Shown one piece after another: positions 15,162-31,877 of a DNA stretch of 64,000 nucleotides. The notes beneath the pieces were generated by a model. That model saw only the letters and a program-made list of their open reading frames with translations. It was not told the origin of the DNA and searched no databases. The stretch's first letter is position 1, and the number at the start of each line of letters is the position of its first letter. Position numbers and translations under genes: made by a program. Source of the stretch: Thermoplasmata archaeon (GTDB taxonomy: Archaea > Thermoplasmatota > Thermoplasmata > Thermoplasmatales > GCA-001856825); assembly GCA_049965815.1 (NCBI GenBank), contig JBMFVV010000003.1:19846-83845 (forward strand). Reading direction: 5' to 3'.

Positions 15162-16076
15162 GTGAACCAGACAATTCTGTTCTTCGGAGATGAAGGAATA
15201 CTAAAGGACCTGGCAAAAAAGGGATCTGAGACAGATATCAGGTATTACAACACAAAGATTTCAGGGGATGAAATTTCATTTCTCTACCCGTTCAAATTTC
15301 CCGAAAGAATCCAAACTTTACTCAATGCTGCGTCTGTCGCAAACAAGGCAATATTAACCGTTGGAGAACTGGATAAGAGTATCGGAGAGTTCCTCCTGAC
15401 ACTGGATTACCACAGGATAACCACGCTAGGCATTATCGCAGACCCTACTGTAGTTGCACAGATCCAGAAAATCACAAGTGGTATGGGAATATCTGTCCAT
15501 CCGCTCACTCCAAAGTTTGAAGACTTGGAAAAGTTTGCACAACTCCCAGTTGGCCCTTCCAAGGAGGAAAATATGGTTGTGCTGGACCAGAGCTTCCAGG
15601 TAAAGGGAGTCGGAACTGTAAGCCTAGGTTTTGTCCTTGGAGGACAGATAAGGAAGCATATGGTGATGAAGGCATACCCATCAGGAAAGAGCGTTGATAT
15701 AAAGAGCATCCAGATAATGGACGTGGATATGGAGACTGCAAACCCATTTTCAAGGGTAGGATTGGCATACAGAAACTCAGAAGTTGATGATGTCCCAAAA
15801 GGGACAATTCTCTATTCACGAGAAGGGATTGAATTCACTGAGAGCGTCCAGCTTAATGTAAGAACCAACCCAACTGTAAAGGTCGTACCATCTGTTGGGG
15901 AAAAGATACAACTCAATTTCCTGTTCAATAACATTAATGCAGAGATATCAGACATTTCAGAAGGAAAATATTTGATAGACGTCGACAAGAAAGTACCCAT
16001 TATTGATGAAATATTCTCTATAACATCCCTAAATTCAAGCCCGAGAGTGATAGGAGCTGGGAAACCTGGAAATTGA
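15162..16076 (+). CDS. EF-Tu/EF-1alpha-like protein with degenerate G domain (EF-Tu domain 2 beta-barrel present)
   Basis: 'VVLDQSFQVKGVGTVSLGFVLGGQIRKHMVMKAYPSGKSVDIKSIQIMDVDMETANPFSRVGLAYRN' is a typical translation-GTPase domain II. The N-terminal ~130 aa lack a GxxxxGK(S/T) P-loop ('FFGDEGILKDLAKKGSETD'). Confidence 0.6.
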   Translation: MNQTILFFGDEGILKDLAKKGSETDIRYYNTKISGDEISFLYPFKFPERIQTLLNAASVANKAILTVGELDKSIGEFLLTLDYHRITTLGIIADPTVVAQIQKITSGMGISVHPLTPKFEDLEKFAQLPVGPSKEENMVVLDQSFQVKGVGTVSLGFVLGGQIRKHMVMKAYPSGKSVDIKSIQIMDVDMETANPFSRVGLAYRNSEVDDVPKGTILYSREGIEFTESVQLNVRTNPTVKVVPSVGEKIQLNFLFNNINAEISDISEGKYLIDVDKKVPIIDEIFSITSLNSSPRVIGAGKPGN

Positions 16077-16278
16077 GGCAAAATTAAAGATAACGGGCGG
16101 AGAATCTGACAACATAATTAGGGCCATAAAGGCAGACCACGGCAAGTACATAAGATGCAGAAAAATTAAGGATGGATACCTCTGTTCTGTCAAAGGCCAA
16201 GCGAACGATGTCAGAAAGACCATAAATGAATTCCTCGAGTCGATCATTTATTTAGAGAGAGTGTCTGAAAGCCTTTAA
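16072..16278 (+). CDS. pcc1: Pcc1-like KEOPS subunit (small ORF without canonical start codon)
   Basis: An open frame runs from 16054 to TAA 16276-16278 and is absent from the ORF track. The translation is 'IEAKLKITGGESDNIIRAIKADHGKYIRCRKIKDGYLCSVKGQANDVRKTINEFLESIIYLERVSESL'. It parallels archaeal Pcc1 as I recall it ('AKIEMEF..ED.A..VY.A......GKKIILDIKATD.SALRGTVNSYLRWIKAALDV'). There is no in-frame ATG/GTG/TTG before codon 60, so the start codon is unresolved; candidates are ATT 16072 and CTG 16057/16066. Confidence 0.5.
   Translation: MEAKLKITGGESDNIIRAIKADHGKYIRCRKIKDGYLCSVKGQANDVRKTINEFLESIIYLERVSESL
16246..16254 (+). promoter_or_regulatory. TATA-like box for tRNA-Arg(GCG), embedded in the 3' end of the Pcc1-like ORF
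   Basis: 'atttattta' is centred about 29 nt upstream of the tRNA 5' end at 16279. The tRNA starts directly after the ORF stop codon. Confidence 0.35.
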
Positions 16279-16353
16279 GCCCGAGTGGGGTAGTTTGGAT
16301 TATCCTAGAGGCCTGCGGAGCCTCAGACCTGGGTTCGAATCCCAGCTCGGGCG
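16279..16353 (+). tRNA. tRNA-Arg (anticodon GCG)
   Basis: Hand-folded cloverleaf. Acceptor GCCCGAG/CTCGGGC; D arm with G18G19 and A21; anticodon stem GAGGC/GCCTC with loop CTGCGGA (GCG); T arm CTGGG-TTCGAAT-CCCAG; discriminator G. No intron and no encoded CCA. Confidence 0.92.
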
Positions 16354-16382
16354 CTTATATTTATATACACAGATATACTATT

Positions 16383-17351
16383 TTACTTATATCCATTCGC
16401 TGATATAATTATAGCATCTCCCCTGAAAGTGTTTTCAAACTCCGCTTCAACAATTGTATGTCCTAAATCTGTTCCAGTTCTCCTTACGAGCATAGGTTCA
16501 ATTTCCTTAAGACCATCACCTAACTTTTTCTTTATCACGATGTCTTTCCCTTTAACCACTTCACAGTTTACCTTCAAATAATTAAGATCAGAAGGAATGA
16601 AAATATTGATTGGTTTGTCCTCGTAGCTTAAACTATAATTAAGAAAGATATTGGCTTCTTCTGATTTGCGTAAAGCCCTACTTAGTGTTATTGAGATACC
16701 CGTCTGGTCTATATATGAATAAGTTATACAATCTTTATTCACAGTGATTTTCTTCGTTTCATCAAACGCAATCAGATCTATTTGATCTGGGGAATCGATA
16801 ACTCCAATAGGTAAGGAAACTGGAAAACTATTTATCAACTTAAGCCCAAGATTCTTGATATGAACGAATTGGGTCACTAATACACGATTTCCTGTAAAAT
16901 CAAACCCAATTGACATATTAGTTGTTGTTTCGCCTTCTAAATATTTGGTCTTAGTCTTCTTACTATATAATACACTATTTCCATCTTCTCTCTTACTTAT
17001 AAGATCAAGTCTTAGCATTTTGTTAATATTCCTATAAACTGTAGCTGTACTTACTGGCCGTCCATAAGACTTATCAAGCGATGATTTAATTTCTGTAAAA
17101 GTTAACTCCCTCCCGTCAGCCTTGACATCTAATACATTTTCAAGTGAATCGAAGATAGAAACCTTAGGTTCAATAACTCCTGCATCTTGCGTTGCAAGAC
17201 CTTCCTTTAGTCTGAAGTAATGTGTTACCCCATTGGAGTGAACAAACTTATAATATCTATAGGTCCTTCCTTTTGCTTTAGAAGTATAGTTGATTTTTCT
17301 TGCTTGCTTCCCACAAACTTTGCAAATTTCCTTGGTTACTTTCCTTCCCAT
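16383..17351 (-). CDS. Uncharacterised Zn-ribbon (CxxC...H..H) + winged-helix protein, paralog A
   Basis: 322 aa. N-terminus 'CKVCGKQARKINYTSKAKGRTYRYYKFVHSNGVTHY'; wH-like 'TATVYRNINKMLRLDLISKREDGNSVLYSK'; about 170 aa of unassigned beta-rich C-terminal region. It is a paralog of 17411..18370 and of the decayed copy at 29965..30569. Confidence 0.7.
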   Translation of the reverse strand: MGRKVTKEICKVCGKQARKINYTSKAKGRTYRYYKFVHSNGVTHYFRLKEGLATQDAGVIEPKVSIFDSLENVLDVKADGRELTFTEIKSSLDKSYGRPVSTATVYRNINKMLRLDLISKREDGNSVLYSKKTKTKYLEGETTTNMSIGFDFTGNRVLVTQFVHIKNLGLKLINSFPVSLPIGVIDSPDQIDLIAFDETKKITVNKDCITYSYIDQTGISITLSRALRKSEEANIFLNYSLSYEDKPINIFIPSDLNYLKVNCEVVKGKDIVIKKKLGDGLKEIEPMLVRRTGTDLGHTIVEAEFENTFRGDAIIISANGYK

Positions 17352-17410
17352 TAAAATCGCAATTAAATCTCTTGATATTCAAGTTTCCGCATTTATTGTT
17401 TAAAGTGTTC

Positions 17411-18370
17411 TTAGTTCTGTTTCCATTTCAATTGAAGGACTGAAAATGGTTCCACGTCTTTTAAACTTAGCCTACTAACTGACTTCCATTTTTCCGAGAA
17501 ATTTTCTCTAACCATTTGAGATAGATCTAGTGTTTCATTTCTAGAAGCGCTAGTTAGAGAGGCACTAAGTTTTGTCGGACTATTACCGGCAATTGAAAAT
17601 TCAAAATTGTCCATTCTAGTTGCCGACGAATATACAAATAACTGTTTTGGTTCTGGCCAATGATATTCTATACTGATATCCCTGGCTTCATTCGGTAGCA
17701 ACGGAGATGGTAACCTTAACAATACCCTTTTGTCATTTGCTGAATCCTCTATCGTCATCAATCTTATGTCCTTGGAATTAGAAGGATCTTTGGCCCTCAT
17801 TGATAAATCTTCAAAAGTTGCATCTACATCACCTACTGCTCTAAATGGAACATAAAACAATGGCCAAGAGTGGTCATTTCTTATTCTATAATAGAATAGA
17901 TGCCTGCTAAACATATTGTCATCATTTTCATCCTCAAGGGCGACCGTTATGCTCTCTATTATGTAGCTTAGTCTCTCCTTGGATACGGTGTTAACATAGA
18001 ATAGATCTCTCCCTTTCTTTTGTCTTTCTATGATTCCAACCTGTGCAAGTCTATTTAGGCTAACCTTTATTGAACTGAATCCAACTTTGGGATTGTCTTT
18101 AATGATTATATTCCTAATATCACTTATTCTGAAGGACCCTAATTTAAAATCCTGGGAGTTTATAGTTTCTATTAGTATCTTTTCCAGTTGCCCTTTTCGG
18201 AATTCTTTGGAATTTCTATCATTTTGGTTCGAATAATGAATATACCCTTGATGATGATAAAGAAAATAGTTATAGCGTTTTCCATATCTATTTAAAACCC
18301 ATTTGCTAGAAACTCTAGCTTTCTCTCCGCAGACAGGACAAACGCCCTCCCTTTGAGCAATAACCATCAC
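17411..18370 (-). CDS. Uncharacterised Zn-ribbon (CxxC...H..H) + winged-helix protein, paralog B
   Basis: 319 aa. 'CPVCGEKARVSSKWVLNRYGKRYNYFLYHHQGYIHY'; wH-like 'SIKVSLNRLAQVGIIERQKKGRDLFYVN'; same architecture as paralog A. The two genes are tandem and co-directional with a 59-bp spacer. Confidence 0.7.
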   Translation of the reverse strand: MMVIAQREGVCPVCGEKARVSSKWVLNRYGKRYNYFLYHHQGYIHYSNQNDRNSKEFRKGQLEKILIETINSQDFKLGSFRISDIRNIIIKDNPKVGFSSIKVSLNRLAQVGIIERQKKGRDLFYVNTVSKERLSYIIESITVALEDENDDNMFSRHLFYYRIRNDHSWPLFYVPFRAVGDVDATFEDLSMRAKDPSNSKDIRLMTIEDSANDKRVLLRLPSPLLPNEARDISIEYHWPEPKQLFVYSSATRMDNFEFSIAGNSPTKLSASLTSASRNETLDLSQMVRENFSEKWKSVSRLSLKDVEPFSVLQLKWKQN

Positions 18371-18428
18371 CCAACAATAATATATAGTATAAAAAAGTTA
18401 GAAAATATTCTCAGCGATCGAGAATTCT

Positions 18429-18602
18429 TCATCCATTGCCCATAAAGGCTCCACCCAGTGACTTCACGATTGCGAAGAACGTGAAAGCACTTAGCGAAAG
18501 CACCATTGCGATTATTTCAAACATTCTAATCCCCCGAACTTCTATAATTAACTGGTATTTCGATACTACTGTAAAGTTAGAAAGTTTTTCTAACTTTATC
18601 AT
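18429..18602 (-). CDS. Small membrane protein (57 aa, single C-terminal TM helix)
   Basis: ATG at 18602 lies 12 nt downstream of a strong 'GGAGGT' (reverse complement of 18615-18620). The C-terminus 'MFEIIAMVLSLSAFTFFAIVKSLGGAFMG' is a TM helix. It sits directly upstream of paralog B on the same strand. The ORF-track version (88 aa from 18695) has an implausible N-terminal extension. Confidence 0.4.
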   Translation of the reverse strand: MIKLEKLSNFTVVSKYQLIIEVRGIRMFEIIAMVLSLSAFTFFAIVKSLGGAFMGNG

Positions 18603-19061
18603 ACTATTGAATATACCTCCTTGATTATTAGGTTGAAAGAAAAATGAAAACTGAATATGTAAGTCCTGTGTGGGTGATGCGAAGTAACCTGCCACAGTAC
18701 TTCTTAGAATCGGTAAACAAGAAGAATAGATTGGAAGCTGGAGAAACTGGGCTATGGCAGAGAATAGGATTCATACTGAGGAACAAATCCCCCTCCTCAG
18801 ATAGGAAGACCATTTCCTACAATAGCCTGTATTCTCCGAACAAGTCTGATCTACATAATTTCCAGAATATAAAAGGGACAGTTCGTGAGAGTGGTTTCAG
18901 TTTTCTCAGTTTAGCCGATAATTTAATATTAAAATCTAAACCGATATTCATGATGCTCTATAGTGCATTGTCAGTAGTGAATTCCATTTCTATGAATGAT
19001 ATAAATTACAACCGTTTTTTTGAGCTGCCCGCTATTAAATGCGAAGGAGGTGACGATTAGA

Positions 19062-19493
19062 ATGACAACATCTCAAGAAATAGCTTCAAAAGAGAGATTT
19101 ATGAAAGAGTATAGGAGAGACTCAAACCCAGACACCAACGATTCAAGGCTTCTAGTATCGTTGCACAGCATAGAGTTCTCTGAGAAGACTAATGGCTACT
19201 TCGAAGTCGCCAGTGACATATACTTCTCGAATCTACTTTACCTCCTGTACATTAAAAAGGTAACTGCGGGTAACGACTTTGAAACTGCAAAGAACAAAGC
19301 TAAATCTGTGCTGATAGGCGAGTTAGAGAAGAAGAGGTATTCGATACTTACAAGAGCATCGTCCTTGAATGAAGACACGCTTGATTCTGTCATAACAGAA
19401 AGAAAGTTGGTCCTGATTGACAGAGCAATCTATCTACTTGAGACCGATGAAACCGATGGGGTATACTGCAACTACGATGTCCCAGATGATTGA
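19062..19493 (+). CDS. Uncharacterised ~140-aa partner protein P1 (paralog of 29512..29907)
   Basis: ATG 19062 is preceded by 'GGAGGTGA' (19046-19053). 'RLLVSLHSIEFSEKTNGYFEVASDIYFSNLLYLLYIKKVT..DFETAKNKAKSVLIGELEKK' aligns by eye with 'KLLISFHNIEFSNITKGYYRIAKNIFMSALPFLLYVKKVT..DFETVKGRAKLVLLDEMKHR' of the second copy. Confidence 0.65.
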   Translation: MTTSQEIASKERFMKEYRRDSNPDTNDSRLLVSLHSIEFSEKTNGYFEVASDIYFSNLLYLLYIKKVTAGNDFETAKNKAKSVLIGELEKKRYSILTRASSLNEDTLDSVITERKLVLIDRAIYLLETDETDGVYCNYDVPDD

Positions 19494-19591
19494 TGAATAA
19501 TATCTGAATTAATCTCAAAACAGGTTTTTGACAATAGGAAAGCAGGTCATTTAGACCATTGTCTTTGACACACTTGATATGAGAAGATTAC

Positions 19592-20359
19592 CTACTGCCC
19601 CTTCACTTCCAGTTCTATTGATTTTATCTTCTTTAGTACTTCTTCAACGATCCTCTTTGAATTTTCAAGAGTGTCTGCCTTTGCCGATACCTCTATTTCA
19701 AGCGATGATTCATTTCCATCCTTAATGGTCGGGTGGGACTTTATGTATACCTTACCGCCATACTCGCTCATCAGTCTTGTTATATAGGGTGCTAACGATG
19801 CTTCGTAAATCCCGACTATAACAAACGAATCTTCGAAATAGAAACTGTCCTTTAACTTAATTTCTCTTTCTATCAACCCTAGCATAGACCTCATCTCCGA
19901 TGGAACTCCGGGAGTAAGAAAGATACGAGTTGACTCAATCTTATACTCGATTCCAGGAGCTGTCCCAACTTCGTTCTTTAGTATTATAGAACCCTTGGGA
20001 ACCATGGCCATCTTCTCGCGTTCCTTCGTCATTTCCATTCCCCTTTTTTCTGTCTTCATCTTAATCTCACTGTAAACATCCTCATTCACCTCTAGTGGTA
20101 TATTGAATTCTTCTGCAAATGAAGATATAGTCATGTCATCGAATGTCGGTCCCAGTCCACCCGTTGACACAATCACATCGCAGACGCCTATGAGGGATCT
20201 GAAAGCACGACCGATCTCCTCCTTTATGTCTGGGACGACAAGACCTCTGTAAATATCATATCCTGAAAAGTTAAGCATTCTACCTATTTCAGCTGCGTTG
20301 GTATTCACTGTTTTCCCCTTAAGTATCTCGTTCCCAATTGTAAGGATGCAAGCCTTCAT
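19592..20359 (-). CDS. cinA: CinA-like protein (MoCF-binding domain + C-terminal KH-like domain)
   Basis: 'MKACILTIGNEILKGKTVNTNAAEIG...VIVSTGGLGPTFDDMT' is the CinA/MoeA-type molybdopterin-binding-fold signature. The 255-aa size matches short archaeal CinA. Confidence 0.8.
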   Translation of the reverse strand: MKACILTIGNEILKGKTVNTNAAEIGRMLNFSGYDIYRGLVVPDIKEEIGRAFRSLIGVCDVIVSTGGLGPTFDDMTISSFAEEFNIPLEVNEDVYSEIKMKTEKRGMEMTKEREKMAMVPKGSIILKNEVGTAPGIEYKIESTRIFLTPGVPSEMRSMLGLIEREIKLKDSFYFEDSFVIVGIYEASLAPYITRLMSEYGGKVYIKSHPTIKDGNESSLEIEVSAKADTLENSKRIVEEVLKKIKSIELEVKGQ

Positions 20360-20414
20360 GACTATGGCAGTGCAGACTGAGTCTTATTCGTTTCCTTCTT
20401 GCATTCTTCTGTTT

Positions 20415-20708
20415 TTATAAATATACAGCTTTTAGGAAGATGTCGTGGATTCTCTTAACTGTCTCATTGCTAGGCTGTCTGAATGTCCCAACATCAGTGA
20501 TTAGACTGTTAATCAAAGAAAGGGGGACTCTATCAAATAGGGGGATTATGGAAGAGTTCTTACGACCTATCTTTCTCTCCATTATCTTTCCAGGGGCGTA
20601 ATCTGAGGCTTTGAATGATTCTCCAATGGCATAAACACCAATACCGGCTTCTCATGCCGATAGACATAAGGGTACCGAGCCAATTTTGTTGATCAGGTAC
20701 CCATTTGA
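20415..20708 (-). pseudogene. C-terminal fragment of an eIF-2B alpha/beta/delta-family (e2b2 / ribose-1,5-bisphosphate or MTR-1-P isomerase-like) gene, split by the IS
   Basis: The minus-strand translation is 'SNGYLINKIGSVPLCLSA*EAGIGVYAIGESFKASDYAPGKIMERKIG...DVGTFRQ...'. It matches the family core 'NGAV(I/V)NKIGT..LAL.AKE..VP.YV.AE..KF'. An in-frame TGA sits at 20652-20654 and the stop at 20415-20417. The fragment continues the N-terminal fragment at 22606..23127. Confidence 0.8.
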
Positions 20709-20763
20709 ATATGGGCACAAATAGTAATAATATAATATATTTCTGATATATAAGGTATTAACA

Positions 20764-21360
20764 ATGAAAGCAAATGAAGTTTTGAATCTTTTGCAGATAT
20801 CCAGAAAGACGCTCCATGTCTATGCAAAAGATGGAAGAATCAGGTATATAGTAATGCCGAACAAGATGTACAATTACAACGAGGAGGATGTCTATAAGAT
20901 TCTCAATAAGGATGTGAAGAGAAAGACCGTTATCTATGCCAGGGTATCAACAGTAAAGCAGAAGAACGACTTACAAAACCAGGTTGAGCAGTTGAAGCAG
21001 TGGTGTTTCATGAATGGGTATACCATAAATGCCATATACGCTGATATTGCCCCCGGCATATCATTTGAAAAGAGAAAAGTGTTCTTCGAGATGCTTGATG
21101 AGATCATGAACCACAGGGTAGAGAAGGTGATCGTAACATACAAGGACAGGTTGAGCAGGGTCGCATTTGAATTATTTAAATACCTGTTTGCGAGATTCAG
21201 GACAGGAATAGTTGTTATTTCGGAAGTGGGCAATGCCAAACTTGATTCAGAAGAAATTTTCGAAGAAATTGTATCAATGCTTCACTGCTATTCAATGAAA
21301 ACGTATCCCAGGAGAAGAAACCATTCGATTGAGGTGGGATATGAAGACAACAAGAACTGA
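20764..21360 (+). CDS. tnpA: IS607-family serine recombinase transposase TnpA (MerR-like HTH + resolvase catalytic domain)
   Basis: N-terminal HTH 'ANEVLNLLQISRKTLHVYAKDGRIRY' followed by the resolvase motif 'VIYARVSTVKQKNDLQNQ' (catalytic Ser) and 'VIVTYKDRLSR'. Confidence 0.9.
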   Translation: MKANEVLNLLQISRKTLHVYAKDGRIRYIVMPNKMYNYNEEDVYKILNKDVKRKTVIYARVSTVKQKNDLQNQVEQLKQWCFMNGYTINAIYADIAPGISFEKRKVFFEMLDEIMNHRVEKVIVTYKDRLSRVAFELFKYLFARFRTGIVVISEVGNAKLDSEEIFEEIVSMLHCYSMKTYPRRRNHSIEVGYEDNKN

Positions 21361-22585
21361 ACAGGTCTATCTGAAGGAGAATGAAACAGTCTCACGGATG
21401 TGCCATCTTTCCAAGAACCTGTTCAATCAAGTCAATTACACACTCAGGAACCAGTTCCTGAACCATGAGAAACTGACTGAGTACAAGGCGCTTGCAAAAC
21501 AGCTTTCGAAACCTTCCGGCATAGAAGATCATGACAACTTTCAGAAGCTGCCGGCACAGACAGCGCAATGGGCAATTAAAAAGGTGGTACAGTCATGGAA
21601 CTCATTCTTCAAAGCCATGAGGGCATGGAAAAAGCATCCTGAAAAGTTCATGGGGATGCCTAAACCGCCTAAATACAAGAATAATGATGGCGAGTTCATG
21701 CTGATATTTACGAACCAGCAGTGCCATATCGATGATGGAATTTTGATTTTTCCAAAGATTATGAATATGGAGGTGGAGACCAGACTGAAGGATGTGGAAC
21801 TGAGAGAGGTTCGGATAATTCCACAGGGCGTGGGTTACACTGTGGAAATAGTATATGTGAAAGAGGCAACGGAAACGGGCACAACGGAACCGCGGAGAGT
21901 TATGGGTATTGATATCGGTGTGAGAAATCTTGTAACCATTGGAAACAACATCTCTGAACAGGGGATTGTTGTTAGGGCAGGATTGCTGAAATCCGTAAAT
22001 CAGTACTTCAACAAGGAATTTGCAAGACTGAGATCAATAAACGATCTGCAACACAATGAAAGAAAGCGGACAAAGAAGATGCAGAAACCCTTCACTGAGA
22101 GAAACAGGAAAGTAAAGGACATTATGCACAGGGTCTCGAAAGCAATCGTAGCTTACGCGAAGATCCGGGAGATAGATACGATCGTCATAGGCCACAACAA
22201 CGAATGGAAACAGTCAGTTAGCATGGGAAAGAGGAATAACCAGAATTTCGTCCAGCTCCCCTTTAACACGTTGATTCAGCAGATCAGGTACAAAGCCGAA
22301 GAGAAAGGGATTAATGTCATGATACAGGAGGAGAGCCACACAAGCAAGTGCAGTTTCCTTGACAATGAAGTGGTAGAACATCACGACACGTACATGGGAA
22401 AGAGAATAAGCAGAGGCACATTTCTATCTGCAGATGGAACACCAATACACGCCGATCTCAATGGATCGTACAACATAATAAGAAAAGCAATCCCTGAAGC
22501 TTTCGCCGACGGGATAGAGGGTATAGGGTTATACCCACGAAGTTTAAGCATCAGACAGATGATAACTTCCAAAGGTGGATGTTAA
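21329..22585 (+). CDS. tnpB: TnpB / IS605 OrfB-family RNA-guided nuclease-type protein
   Basis: Candidate RuvC triad: 'MGIDIGVRNL' (D), 'MIQEESHTSKCS' (E), 'IHADLNGSYNIIRK' (D). Overlaps tnpA by 32 nt. It belongs to the 'SKCSFLD' subgroup, which has no CxxC..CxxC zinc finger between E and D. Confidence 0.9.
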   Translation: MRWDMKTTRTEQVYLKENETVSRMCHLSKNLFNQVNYTLRNQFLNHEKLTEYKALAKQLSKPSGIEDHDNFQKLPAQTAQWAIKKVVQSWNSFFKAMRAWKKHPEKFMGMPKPPKYKNNDGEFMLIFTNQQCHIDDGILIFPKIMNMEVETRLKDVELREVRIIPQGVGYTVEIVYVKEATETGTTEPRRVMGIDIGVRNLVTIGNNISEQGIVVRAGLLKSVNQYFNKEFARLRSINDLQHNERKRTKKMQKPFTERNRKVKDIMHRVSKAIVAYAKIREIDTIVIGHNNEWKQSVSMGKRNNQNFVQLPFNTLIQQIRYKAEEKGINVMIQEESHTSKCSFLDNEVVEHHDTYMGKRISRGTFLSADGTPIHADLNGSYNIIRKAIPEAFADGIEGIGLYPRSLSIRQMITSKGGC

Positions 22586-22590
22586 AATGG

Positions 22591-23127
22591 TTAACAGAAA
22601 TCATAACCTAGACCATCAAATCCAATTATGACTGCCTCCACTGAATTTACGAAGGCATACGATGCGCTATCCGGTATCACGGTAACATTGCAGATTGCCC
22701 CATAATCTTTCTCCGCAACTTTATACTCATTACCTGGACTGGACTTTAGGAGCAGCAACTCTTCCAATCCAGTAGATTCAATAAATGTCTTTACAGCACT
22801 GCTATAACTTATTGCAACTGCACTCCTAATTCTAAGTTTCCTAACTTCGGATTTAAGATTGTCCACTGCCCTTTTCCTGTATTCGACCAATAACCTGCCA
22901 GTCTTCCTTAAATCTTCATCAGATTCAATCTTACTTGTCTTCAGAACCAGCCCAGTATTTGAAATGCTGGCCATACCTGGACGAATCTCATCCATGGACT
23001 TTACCAGCAATTTTAGGTCATTCAGATTAATGCCAGTTAAAAGTTCGGCTATCCTTTCGAAATACCAAGAAGAACCATGAATGTAATCACGCTTGAGTTC
23101 TGAAATTGTTCTCTGGAATTCTTCCAT
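22591..23127 (-). pseudogene. N-terminal fragment of the same eIF-2B/e2b2-family gene, truncated by the IS insertion
   Basis: 178-aa ORF ending '...IPDSASYAFVNSVEAVIIGFDGLGYDFC*'. 'DSA....V..V..VI.G.D' is the family segment just upstream of the NKIGT core. The last ~5 codons and the stop are read from the IS right end. Confidence 0.8.
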
Positions 23128-28839: not shown

Positions 28840-29394
28840 CTAACTGAGTGCCGCAGTGATTGACCCTGTCGTGCCACTATAGTTTATGACTACCTTGAAA
28901 TCAGACAGATTTACAGGGCTGCCTTCCGTGTGGAACTGTATATATATGAATGCCCCCGATTCAATAGATGTTGCTCCATTGACGGGGCTAGCTCCATTAG
29001 AAGTCCATGTACTTCCACTGCTTGTAAAAGTGTTCATATAGAGAACCGAACCATCTGGATTGGTTATGGTGGCATTCACTACTGTCCAGCCGACACCTGT
29101 GGAACTGTCATTTAGTATTTGAAGGTGGAAATCAGACGGGTTCTTTAGAACGGTCGGAGTAGCTAATGTTAAAATCAAAGTGACAGAGTTTGAAGAGGAT
29201 GATTCTTCGGATAAACCTCCTACTAGTGGTCCCGGTCCGGGACTATAGTAAGAGACCAGTAGATATACAGCTGCTGCTAGTACAACAGTTACGGCAACCA
29301 TTAGAATCGTAGCGATAACAGGAGATACTGCCTCGTCCTTTTCAATATGAAGCGTCCAAATCTTCCTTCGAGTTCTCCTTACGACTTCTTTCAT
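28840..29394 (-). CDS. Archaeal type IV pilin-like protein (class III signal peptide, DUF1628-type N-terminus)
   Basis: '...EKDEAVSPVIATILMVAVTVVLAAAVYLLV' is the archaeal prepilin N-terminal signature. A Ser/Thr/Asn-rich beta domain with N-x-S/T sequons follows. Confidence 0.8.
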   Translation of the reverse strand: MKEVVRRTRRKIWTLHIEKDEAVSPVIATILMVAVTVVLAAAVYLLVSYYSPGPGPLVGGLSEESSSSNSVTLILTLATPTVLKNPSDFHLQILNDSSTGVGWTVVNATITNPDGSVLYMNTFTSSGSTWTSNGASPVNGATSIESGAFIYIQFHTEGSPVNLSDFKVVINYSGTTGSITAALS

Positions 29395-29511: not shown

Positions 29512-29907
29512 TCACAATTCCTCAAGAATTGATATCGCTTGATCAAGCAACTTAATCTTAACACTAAACCGGTCATTCTTGTCAGCTGGGTCGAATTCTG
29601 ATAGGTTACTAAGAAGCGTTAGACTTCTCTTCCTGTGTTTCATTTCATCCAGCAAGACCAACTTTGCCCTTCCCTTTACTGTTTCGAAGTCGCAATTAGG
29701 AGGATTGGTGGTGACCTTCTTTACGTAGAGCAGAAATGGCAGTGCAGACATGAAAATGTTCTTTGCTATCCTGTAATAGCCCTTGGTTATGTTTGAAAAT
29801 TCTATATTATGGAATGAAATCAAAAGTTTAAGTTCCCCGTTAACTACCCGGTATTTCTTGTTCACACAGATGACTTCGTAATGTCTTGATTCACTATCCG
29901 AAACCAT
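29512..29907 (-). CDS. Uncharacterised ~130-aa partner protein P2 (paralog of 19062..19493)
   Basis: See the alignment with P1. ATG 29907 is preceded by 'GGAGGGGA'. It is divergent from the decayed Zn-ribbon/wH-family gene, with a 57-bp spacer. Confidence 0.65.
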   Translation of the reverse strand: MVSDSESRHYEVICVNKKYRVVNGELKLLISFHNIEFSNITKGYYRIAKNIFMSALPFLLYVKKVTTNPPNCDFETVKGRAKLVLLDEMKHRKRSLTLLSNLSEFDPADKNDRFSVKIKLLDQAISILEEL

Positions 29908-29964
29908 TTCATATTCCCCTCCGAAGGTAATTTCTCTGGAAAAGTTAAATACACATCGAATTTC

Positions 29965-30569
29965 TTGAATAAAACTAGCGGGAGGAACATCACCTACTAC
30001 AGAAAAAAAGACCCATCTCAGGTGATAAAGGAGATAAAGATCAACGAGACGTCGCTCAATTGGTTTCCTTCAGGTAGGAAGGCTTCTGTTAATCTTTTTC
30101 TCTATCTGAGAAATGATACAGATAGGCCGCTAACATCCATACCCATTTCACTGCCATCAGGTGGGTCAGACTCACCGGAAGACCTCAACTTGAACGCTTA
30201 CGACCAATATGGAAGTATAGATAAAAACCGCATTAATACCACTTACACCTATCCGGGCCGGATATTGATCTCAGTTGGTTCTAACAAAGTTCTAAAACCT
30301 ATTGAAAAAACTTCGTGTTCCTGCAGGGGAATATTGATATAAACGATGATTAGATGAAATTTTCACTCCCCATCAACATAGATTCATTCAAGATGAGCTG
30401 TATTTCTGACCAAACAAGGGAGTTCTACATAAAGAGACTGTTACTGGACGGAATAAAAGAGAGCAATCCAGACCCAGTAAAGAGAGGTACACTGGAAGGG
30501 GGAAATTCCTATACGGAAGTGTAATTCGATAAACTGGTGAAAGGAGAAACGATAGTAGTATCGTGGTAG
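29965..30569 (+). pseudogene. Decayed third copy of the Zn-ribbon/wH family (N-terminally truncated, frameshifted, two premature stops)
   Basis: 'ITYYRKK...PLTSIPISLPSGGSDSPEDLNLNAYDQ' aligns with paralog A 'VLYSKK...LINSFPVSLPIGVIDSPDQIDLIAFDE'. Homology continues in another frame after the A6 run at 30305-30310: 'NFVFLQGNIDINDD*MKFSLPINIDSFKMSC...YTEV*FDKLVKGETIVVSW' versus A 'ANIFLNYSLSYEDKPINIFIPSD..LKVNC...TIVEAEFENTFRGDAIIIS'. In-frame stops are at 30351-30353 and 30522-30524. The Zn-ribbon and wH parts are absent. Confidence 0.75.
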
Positions 30570-30703: not shown

Positions 30704-30997
30704 TTGATTGCGTGGAATAGCCTGCTAGATTTCGTACTCAGTTTCGTAGTAGGTTTATTGTTCGGTCTCTCCGTGAAGAAAGGTGCAATGGCGTTCCTCC
30801 TTGCGATCATCGGGTTTATCATAGCGGGATATGTAGGTCTAACATTCATCCCTAAAATATCTCTGGCGTATGAAATAAACAAATTCATAGGCTTATTATC
30901 TGCATACATAAAGGACTTCCATATTGGAGCACTTTCTGTATCCCTTTCAATAGTACTCTTTCTTGTCGGGCTAGCAATAGGACTCTGGAAAGGTTGA
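30704..30997 (+). CDS. Small integral membrane protein (3 predicted TM helices)
   Basis: 97 aa. 'LDFVLSFVVGLLFGLSV', 'AMAFLLAIIGFIIAGYVGLTFI' and 'LSVSLSIVLFLVGLAIGLW' are hydrophobic helices. The antisense ORF 30646..30909 looks like a shadow. Confidence 0.5.
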   Translation: MIAWNSLLDFVLSFVVGLLFGLSVKKGAMAFLLAIIGFIIAGYVGLTFIPKISLAYEINKFIGLLSAYIKDFHIGALSVSLSIVLFLVGLAIGLWKG

Positions 30998-31115: not shown

Positions 31116-31877
31116 TTGTTGAAAGAAGTAAGAAGGGAGGAAGCGGTATCAGAGGTCGTGGGAACAATCCTTGTACTTGCGATTACCATTGTACTTTTTG
31201 CCGCTGTTTTTTTCTATATTCAGCAATTTCCACTAGCAAATCCATCAGAGCAGGTAACCGTTTATCCCGAAATATCTTACAACCCCCACTCACAAATCTT
31301 GTATGAGAACATTACGTTGAAAGCAGGAAGCATCCTTCCGAGGAGCAACACATATTTCATTGTTATTATAAACAATAAAGAGTTTACTACCCCTACTACT
31401 AATATTAAGCTCGGAAGCCCTTACAATAATTCGTCAATATACCTGGAACCCGGAGATGTTTTGATGTGGAACAGTTCACTGACAGGTGTGACAATCCCTG
31501 AAAATTCCAGCGTCACCTCTTTCCTGTTCTATAAACCATCTAGCCAGATACTATGGCAGTCTAAGTATGTCGTCTCTAGCCAGTTGTCAATATCTTCTTT
31601 CTATGTCACCCCCTTCCCTGTTAAACCAGATACTTCATTTGAAATCGTGCTGGACGTTGAAACCTATGACCCTAATGGTACCACTGCATACTTGAATCTT
31701 TCATCTCTGTATGGATCAAACTTCAATGTGTCCATGCACCTTTATAGCACATCAGTTAGCACAGTAACCTTCTATTTCTATGGAAGTTCCCCTGATGTTG
31801 TTCCAGCTAATTCAACAGCATATGTTACTGTGAATGCAAATGGAATGATCCAGAATTCTGAACTCATTCTAAGCTGA
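31116..31877 (+). CDS. Archaeal type IV pilin-like protein (class III signal peptide, DUF1628-type N-terminus)
   Basis: 'MLKEVRREEAVSEVVGTILVLAITIVLFAAVFFYI' followed by a sequon-rich (NIT, NSS, NSS, NGT, NLS, NVS, NST) beta domain. Confidence 0.8.
   Translation: MLKEVRREEAVSEVVGTILVLAITIVLFAAVFFYIQQFPLANPSEQVTVYPEISYNPHSQILYENITLKAGSILPRSNTYFIVIINNKEFTTPTTNIKLGSPYNNSSIYLEPGDVLMWNSSLTGVTIPENSSVTSFLFYKPSSQILWQSKYVVSSQLSISSFYVTPFPVKPDTSFEIVLDVETYDPNGTTAYLNLSSLYGSNFNVSMHLYSTSVSTVTFYFYGSSPDVVPANSTAYVTVNANGMIQNSELILS

Follow-up and report, generated by a model that had tools for sequence, protein, structure and literature searches.

Does a pair of tandem genes of no recognisable family, lying next to a tRNA gene and facing small divergently transcribed genes, represent a genuine genetic system and, if so, what might that system do? 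The question is raised by positions 16383-19493 of a 64,000-nucleotide stretch of DNA (the window) from a Thermoplasmata archaeon (GenBank assembly GCA_049965815.1, contig JBMFVV010000003.1, forward-strand positions 19,846 to 83,845), which an earlier reading of the letters alone (the sequence-only reading) had put forward as an uncharacterised module. Our analysis resolves the locus into five genes in three transcription units, with S and B-A on the minus strand and P2-P1 on the plus strand. This gene set is lineage-restricted, the examined family members all deriving from uncultured acidophilic Thermoplasmata. With moderate confidence, we interpret A and B as a pair that would bind a 10-bp promoter box and regulate its own synthesis as part of a regulatory module confined to this lineage.

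The description of the module as uncharacterised was borne out. Searches of Pfam, NCBIfam, PADLOC and PHROGs left all five proteins unassigned and returned only sub-threshold winged-helix matches, also when the members of the A and B families were scanned one by one. No PHROGs match fell below E 0.01, and a search of PDB sequences with the A and P1 profiles gave nothing significant. The sole match in PADLOC-DB 2.0 was to the CARF3--CARF model (E 2.9e-5), and it covered the winged-helix segment of A (residues 71-134). With respect to toxin-antitoxin systems of the AbiEi/AbiEii type, B matched AbiEi at E 0.008-0.09 through its winged helix only, while P1, P2 and S matched nothing. Our literature search found no description of the A/B family or of the module.

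Gene A (16383-17351, minus strand) was called as an open reading frame (ORF) of 322 aa, and gene B (17411-18367, minus strand), its distant full-length paralog, lies directly upstream. The ORF call for B extended over 17411-18370; since its homologs begin at an ATG one codon in, B was set at 318 aa. Hence, both of the tandem paralogs announced by the sequence-only reading exist, with B being one residue shorter than the 319 aa given there. BLASTP detected similarity between A and B solely in the N-terminal zinc ribbon (C-x2-C...H-x5-H; E 6e-5), while an hhalign comparison of profiles built from 21 A-type and 9 B-type sequences aligned 275 columns (97.6 % probability, E 3.7e-12). As the profile alignment covers this length, A and B are judged, on sequence grounds, to be old full-length paralogs with a common three-part build.

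The first part of this build is the Cys/His element noted previously. Its putative zinc ligands are invariant, both in the A sequences (C10, C13, H38 and H44 in all 21) and in the B sequences (C10, C13, H39 and H44 in all 9). In an AlphaFold2 (AF2) model of A, built on the A alignment (predicted local distance difference test score, pLDDT, 81.8), residues 7-48 form long β-hairpins that bear the Cys and His ligands and make up a CCHH zinc ribbon. In the B-type protein of a distant module (L017 4812-5960; 382 aa), the C-x2-C...H ribbon occurs twice in succession. The second part agrees with the central winged helix that had been proposed: following a flexible linker, residues 66-131 of the AF2 model comprise three helices and a wing. 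This winged helix is Fur-like. Its recognition helix in A (residues 100-108) is of the S/T-x-A-T-V/I-Y-R-N type, as in Fur; sub-threshold FUR matches were obtained for 15 of the 21 A members (best member E 1.1e-4), and two Fur proteins were the only out-of-family matches when 1.84 billion proteins were searched with the A family. Sub-threshold Penicillinase_R matches were found in 7 of 9 B members.

The third part, the C-terminal region of ~170 aa, is β-rich as had been stated, yet it is not beyond assignment. In the AF2 model, residues 142-318 of A fold into an all-β domain, after which the protein ends at 322 aa. Foldseek comparison of this domain with the PDB placed ribophorin I/Ost1 on top (6s7t_E, 6ezn_A, 6s7o_E, 6c26_1; E 4e-7 to 1e-6) and also matched the N-terminal β domain of M1 aminopeptidase/LTA4H and ITIH1. 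The β-sandwich matches as a whole ranged from E 4e-7 to 1e-5 with probability 1.0, at a sequence identity of 7-16 %. Weak Ribophorin_I sequence matches were seen in 2 of 21 A members (E 0.003), and comparison of A with viral structures returned only giant-virus proteins of inter-alpha-trypsin-inhibitor type. As modelled, the C-terminal region of A is therefore a β-sandwich of known fold that is non-catalytic in its fold relatives. Neither a signal peptide nor a transmembrane (TM) segment was found in the A sequences.

Gene S (18429-18524, minus strand) encodes a 31-aa single-pass membrane peptide, MFEIIAMVLSLSAFTFFAIVKSLGGAFMGNG, in which a single hydrophobic helix is followed by a Gly-rich C-terminal tail. 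A single-TM ORF of 57 aa had been described at this position; the membrane peptide is real, whereas the length was overestimated. In-frame stop codons interrupt the 26-codon extension required by the longer version in four of the nine orthologous loci, and the extension coincides with promoter DNA that is conserved. When the intergenic DNA is aligned, 9/9 genomes retain the 31-aa frame together with a GGGGGA site 6-8 nt ahead of it, and S equivalents of 33-37 aa are present in loci L016, L017 and L023.

The divergent operon opens with gene P2 (18644-19060, plus strand; 138 aa) and continues with gene P1 (19062-19493, plus strand; 143 aa), only 1 nt separating the P2 stop codon from the P1 ATG. 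The 143-aa ORF of the sequence-only reading is real and has the ribosome-binding site GGAGGTGA, which falls within the 3' end of P2; it does not directly face the A/B genes, however, as the overlooked P2 intervenes. P2 stays open over 135-145 codons in every orthologous locus. By our estimate, any one frame would be open over 138 codons with a probability of roughly 6e-5, and since this is so improbable in A+T-rich DNA, the openness of P2 cannot be attributed to chance. P2 and its positional equivalents (L017 4114-4518, L020 177-593) keep their position and a length of 134-145 aa while sequence similarity is lost between module subtypes: for the similarly placed L017_134 and L020_138, no resemblance to P2 could be detected. 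The apparent synonymous divergence (dS) of P2 is below that of neighbouring genes, and P2 may be subject to constraints of an unusual kind, for instance disorder or overlapping signals. P1 is a conserved protein; in its AF2 model (pLDDT 74.6), the N-terminus is disordered and the remainder consists of a four-strand β-meander and a helical hairpin. Foldseek found no structural neighbour of this model in the PDB (best E 1.5).

Is this arrangement peculiar to one genome? The sequence-only reading had maintained that the pairing was no accident of one locus, and had named co-occurrence outside this genome as the test. Indeed, wherever the contig of an orthologous locus extends far enough, in 8 related Thermoplasmata genomes, A, B, S, P2 and P1 occur together with their order and orientation unchanged. 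The A family is small: 28 of 1.84 billion representative proteins matched it at E <= 1e-3, and an index of 5.8 billion proteins contained 27 clusters, those with names all belonging to metagenome-assembled genomes (MAGs) of Thermoplasmata or Thermoplasmatota. In a species-level genome collection, it was present in 8 MAGs, including the acid-mine-drainage 'I-plasma', which gives 9 genomes with that of the window. The module is flanked on one side by a CinA-like MoCF_biosynth gene and on the other by tRNA-Arg(GCG), an EF-Tu-D2-like gene and PadR. It occupies one syntenic chromosomal place and is vertically inherited.

The proteins of the module diverge at different rates. Amino acid identity to the window amounts to 55-80 % for B, 44-69 % for A, 50-78 % for P1, 60-91 % for S and 19-48 % for P2, with the flanking EF-Tu-D2-like and CinA-like proteins at 79-90 % and 65-85 %, respectively. 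The ratio of nonsynonymous to synonymous divergence (dN/dS) is 0.08-0.12 for A, 0.05-0.09 for B, 0.06-0.15 for S and 0.08-0.15 for P1, comparable to the flanking housekeeping genes. P2 evolves fast, with a dN/dS of 0.56-0.77, while the other four genes are under purifying selection. The suggestion that the locus is a variable island does not agree with its single syntenic place and with dN/dS values like those of its housekeeping neighbours.

More distant loci reveal which genes form the core. Wherever a locus offers enough sequence, B precedes A, which holds for at least four subfamilies (L007-L012, L014-L018, L021-L023), with L021 and L022 likewise being tandem pairs. In L016, the context is different: a 34-aa peptide with TM segment and Gly tail and proteins of the B type (334 aa) and A type (335 aa) occur without P1 or P2, and two secreted or membrane proteins are encoded divergently next to them. 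A third context is seen in L017/L018, where the trio consists of a 37-aa peptide, a B-type protein of 382 aa whose ribbon is duplicated, and an A-type protein of 326 aa. Opposite it lie ORFs of 134 and 127 aa; the latter, L017_127, has a weak, at most suggestive match to the P1 profile (hhalign E 1e-3, probability 22 %). Since the trio S->B->A recurs in other contexts, sometimes without P2/P1, it is the conserved core, and P2-P1 is a frequent, non-obligatory companion.

If A and B carry DNA-binding heads, is there a candidate target? The 10-mer TTCTAACTTT has exactly three copies in the window, at 18394-18403 (minus strand), 18573-18582 (minus strand) and 18588-18597 (plus strand), all within 204 bp of the intergenic DNA of the module; from base composition, we estimate that ~0.26 exact copies would be expected by chance in 64 kb. 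One-mismatch matches elsewhere in the window are at chance level (7 against 7.2 expected). The 10-mer is exact at the same three positions in all 9 genomes (27/27 copies), despite saturated synonymous sites. In each of the three promoters (P2-P1, S and B-A), it lies directly upstream of, and abuts, a TATA-like element, box and element together reading TTCTAACTTTTTTATACTATAT at the B promoter, TTCTAACTTTATCATACTATTG at the P2 promoter and TTCTAACTTTACAGTAGTATCG at the S promoter. This is the place where the B recognition element (BRE) of archaeal promoters normally lies. The B promoter cassette spans 18377-18405 (minus strand; inverted repeat I1), its box abutting TTTTATAC, while the back-to-back S and P2 cassettes, with two boxes, span 18559-18611 on both strands (inverted repeat I4). 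Because the TATA-like box of the B promoter starts 26 nt ahead of the B ATG, the sequence suggests a leaderless B transcript. The 59-nt spacer between B and A (17352-17410) and its orthologs contain a conserved GAAAyTTGAATAT, located ~27 nt ahead of the start codon of A. It is a possible internal promoter that would give a leaderless A transcript; the P2 promoter box, too, is followed by TTGAATA.

The S and P2 boxes, placed back to back, create the palindrome TTAGAA-N5-TTCTAA at 18577-18593. The pattern TTAGAA-N4-6-TTCTAA is seen a single time in each locus, invariably in the intergenic DNA between the divergent units (0.07 expected per window). A scan of metagenomes with the 26-nt palindrome gave 109 matches, one of which (L123) was accompanied by the module; the others came from unrelated organisms and are uninformative as to a wider regulon. 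The same palindrome with 10-bp arms (AAAGTTAGAA, an A/T-rich spacer and TTCTAACTTT) was observed in two dozen metagenome contigs of ~0.5 G+C, among them L028, L037, L051, L060, L065, L100, L109, L113, L117 and L127, with many from metagenome Ga0247727. Many of these contigs have common flanks, such as ggtcattggttcacg...tttgaacaggagcgaacagagaaaa, and the metagenome palindrome resembles a dispersed repeat from some unrelated organism.

A second locus in the window bears on what the palindrome belongs to. The sequence-only reading had seen the divergent arrangement recur at 29512-30569. The small ORF there, P1b (29512-29907, minus strand; 131 aa), is a true paralog of P1 (45 % identity, E 2e-22; subfamily P0076-P0081), whereas the large one (29965-30569, plus strand) is an A-type pseudogene, A', which has lost its first ~116 codons and contains one frameshift and two in-frame stops. 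The A profile matches it in two different frames, at positions 117-233 and 233-318, respectively, and the zinc ribbon and winged helix are gone. At the syntenic place, I-plasma (L015) possesses intact B' (318 aa) and A' (310 aa) with P1b reduced to fragments, L023 has S' (33 aa), B' and A' and no P genes, and L020 has a 138-aa ORF and P1b. As these lineages and the window keep different parts, the second copy is an old paralogous module that is decaying differently by lineage.

The two copies are arranged as mirror images ~10 kb apart (A B S | P2 P1 ... P1b | A'). Box and palindrome are also present at the second loci that keep S'B'A' and have lost P1b (L015, L023), and the palindrome occurs in L020 as well, while palindrome and box are missing at the second locus of the window, where P1b is kept and S'B'A' is lost. 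Upstream of S in L016, which has S-B-A and neither P1 nor P2, we found TTCTAA-N11-TTAGAA. Since its presence and absence at the second loci and in L016 track S-B-A, the cis element travels with S-B-A and not with P2-P1. The ~10-kb block between the copies is syntenic in relatives and contains CinA-like, IF-2B, MFS, MarR, esterase, DAO, ornithine cyclodeaminase-like and pilin genes.

These data are combined in the following interpretation, to which we attach the moderate confidence expressed above. A and B would be cytoplasmic DNA-binding paralogs, each with a CCHH ribbon, a Fur-like winged helix and a ribophorin-I/M1-N-like β-sandwich. They probably act as a heterodimer, which we propose because the pairing of B and A is invariable. 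The pair would recognise the 10-bp box TTCTAACTTT, and its binding there would control the synthesis of A and B themselves together with that of S, P2 and P1, a scope deduced from the position of the box upstream of the TATA-like element in all three promoters. Control might take the form of repression, by occlusion of the site for the BRE and transcription factor B (TFB), or of activation. The β-sandwich is the likely input domain, since elsewhere this fold contacts peptides or proteins; candidate ligands are the cytoplasmic Gly-rich tail of S, or P1/P2.

Several observations weigh against this interpretation. The winged-helix family matches all remain under the curated thresholds. No box was seen outside the module in the scanned DNA (64 kb plus flanks), so that no wider regulon is visible, and the B promoter has a single half-site with no conserved partner. 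Furthermore, the distant locus L017 has a different palindrome, TTTTTTTCA-GAA-TGAAAAAAA. Finally, the box could instead be bound by P2/P1, or could be a duplicated cassette for TATA-binding protein (TBP) and TFB.

The alternative that survives best, although we consider it unlikely, is a conflict or addiction-type module, in which P2-P1 would be toxin-antitoxin-like or defence effectors and A/B, with S, their dedicated regulators or sensors. The contrast between fast-evolving P2 and conserved P1, the 1 nt between them, a G+C content of 0.37 in the module against ~0.43 in its flanks, the adjoining insertion hot spot at the tRNA, the uneven decay of the second copy, and the restriction of visible box targets to the module's own promoters would all suit such a role. 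However, neither PADLOC, NCBIfam, Pfam nor PHROGs yielded a defence or toxin-antitoxin assignment beyond the weak winged-helix matches to AbiEi and the CARF-associated model, and P1 matches no known toxin fold. The module occupies the same chromosomal site in 9/9 genomes, with A, B, S and P1 constrained like housekeeping neighbours, and S-B-A is found without P2/P1 in L016 and L023. The conflict module put forward by the sequence-only reading also gains no support from integrases, att repeats, defence matches or viral-contig matches, none of which was found.

Two further readings are, in our estimate, somewhat less probable again. In one, the A/B heterodimer would be a novel type of archaeal promoter-specific factor that reads a box replacing the BRE and is held inactive at the membrane by S through the ribophorin-I-like, peptide-binding domain; this would be a functional analogue of the bacterial extracytoplasmic function (ECF) sigma/anti-sigma switch, with P2/P1 as output, for example in an envelope or conflict response. 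In the other, to which we assign the same low probability, A/B-type proteins control type IV pilin-like and envelope genes, and S is the membrane signal input. That S is a membrane peptide, and that two secreted or membrane proteins are the divergent neighbours in L016, would be in keeping with this, as would the setting of S'B'A'. The second copy is bracketed in the window by two Pilin_N genes and a 97-aa membrane protein (28840-29394, 30704-30997, 31116-31877), a bracketing that is conserved in I-plasma (L015) and L023; in the window, S'B'A' itself has decayed. Nevertheless, neither the TTCTAACTTT box nor the palindrome is found upstream of the window pilin genes, both of which are retained despite the loss of the second-copy regulators, and the first module has no adjoining envelope genes.

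We regard it as less likely still that the box belongs to a triplicated strong promoter cassette that is read by general factors, with A/B having another nucleic-acid-binding or protein-binding role. The common sequence does exceed the box (TTCTAACTTT-W-Y-M-R-TA-S-TAT, with the 25-29 nt inverted repeats I1 and I4), resembling promoter duplication, and the box holds the BRE position. On the other hand, the cassette is not seen at other promoters of the 64-kb window, its presence co-varies with S-B-A, and the 10-bp core is invariant in 27/27 copies whereas the flanking promoter bases vary.

The surroundings of the module, finally, bear on mobility. The tRNA-Arg(GCG) gene (16279-16354, plus strand) adjoins the stop of A and is a neighbour outside the module, its 3' end lying 29 nt from it. 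In relatives, 0-4.4 kb of variable DNA separates A from the tRNA, again outside the module, and the notion that the module is itself a variable island fails, as the variable DNA lies beside it, at the tRNA. This tRNA is an insertion hot spot with differing cargo (L001 7353-12969, L003 7345-10135, L005 7001-11112), such as small hypothetical genes with a 749-aa protein, a 607-aa and a 154-aa protein, or ABC permease genes. Rfam detected nothing except the tRNA in 15500-21000. An IS607-type element lies in the region of 20764-22585 and 22591-23127, in or beside an IF-2B-family gene and 1.3 kb from the module; its products are a 198-aa serine recombinase, with Resolvase and HTH_17 matches, and a 418-aa TnpB/OrfB_IS605 protein that has a Cas12f-like TNB domain. 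The IF-2B gene of the window is reduced to a 178-aa remnant, and relatives have a 270-272-aa gene or none. That A/B are the former regulators of a provirus or plasmid integrated at tRNA-Arg, to which the 29-nt distance, the low G+C, the variable cargo of relatives and the IS607-like element might point, is the least probable of these explanations, given that there is no integrase among the window ORFs, no direct repeat of the tRNA end in 16000-21000, no relative in IMG/VR viral contigs scanned with the A and B profiles, no PHROGs match at the level given above, and synteny of the module in 9/9 genomes with the variable DNA lying outside it. Neither mobility nor a conflict role is supported for the module.

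If A and B do bind the box, they would represent a new family of archaeal transcription regulators with an unreported domain combination and a clear predicted operator. A conserved 31-aa membrane peptide tied to a regulator would also point to a possible regulatory role for a micro-protein; to our knowledge, few archaeal micro-proteins have any proposed role. The impact is limited by the very narrow taxonomic range of the family, with its 28 matches among 1.84 billion representatives.

How does the module compare with known systems? Fur (PF01475) shares the S/T-x-A-T-V/I-Y-R-N recognition helix of A and a structural zinc site, although both A (16.7 bits) and B (15.9 bits) miss its gathering score of 23.1. 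The zinc site of A/B is an N-terminal CCHH β-ribbon, unlike that of Fur, and where Fur has a C-terminal α/β dimerisation and metal domain, A has, in its AF2 model, a β-sandwich of 180 aa. The BlaI/MecI/CopY repressors offer a likeness in overall design: they are winged-helix proteins that act at a palindromic operator placed between divergent promoters, regulate their own synthesis and have a membrane partner, operator and autoregulation being proposals in the case of A/B. B misses the cut-offs of Penicillinase_R (PF03965; 20.3 against 22.6 bits) and CopY_TcrY (TIGR02698; 16.3 against 121.95 bits). No sensor-protease of the BlaR1/MecR1 type accompanies the module, as there is no peptidase gene in any module locus and the 31-aa S is its sole membrane protein. 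A/B also differ from these repressors in their additional zinc ribbon and β-sandwich and in their fixed tandem pairing.

The C-terminal domain of A matches the luminal β-sandwich fold of ribophorin I/Ost1 (PF04597), yet the A family has no signal peptide, no membrane anchor and no oligosaccharyltransferase (OST) genes nearby. Compared with M1 aminopeptidase/LTA4H, A is without the catalytic HEXXH domain and has no peptidase match in Pfam; compared with ITIH1, it is without the vWA domain, and the fold appears here to be fused to a cytoplasmic DNA-binding head. A parallel in general logic is offered by archaeal one-component regulators such as the TrmB family, in which the winged helix is N-terminal, effectors bind to a C-terminal domain and the operators overlap the BRE and TATA elements. 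Their C-terminal domain is unrelated in sequence and fold, and they have no zinc ribbon, obligatory tandem paralogs or small membrane peptide; Pfam scans of A and B gave no TrmB match. The parts of the module are familiar, namely a zinc ribbon, a winged helix, a β-sandwich of known fold and a palindromic element, in the position of an operator, between divergent promoters. What is new is the combination of these domains, the obligatory pairing of the paralogs and the micro-protein that is linked to them.

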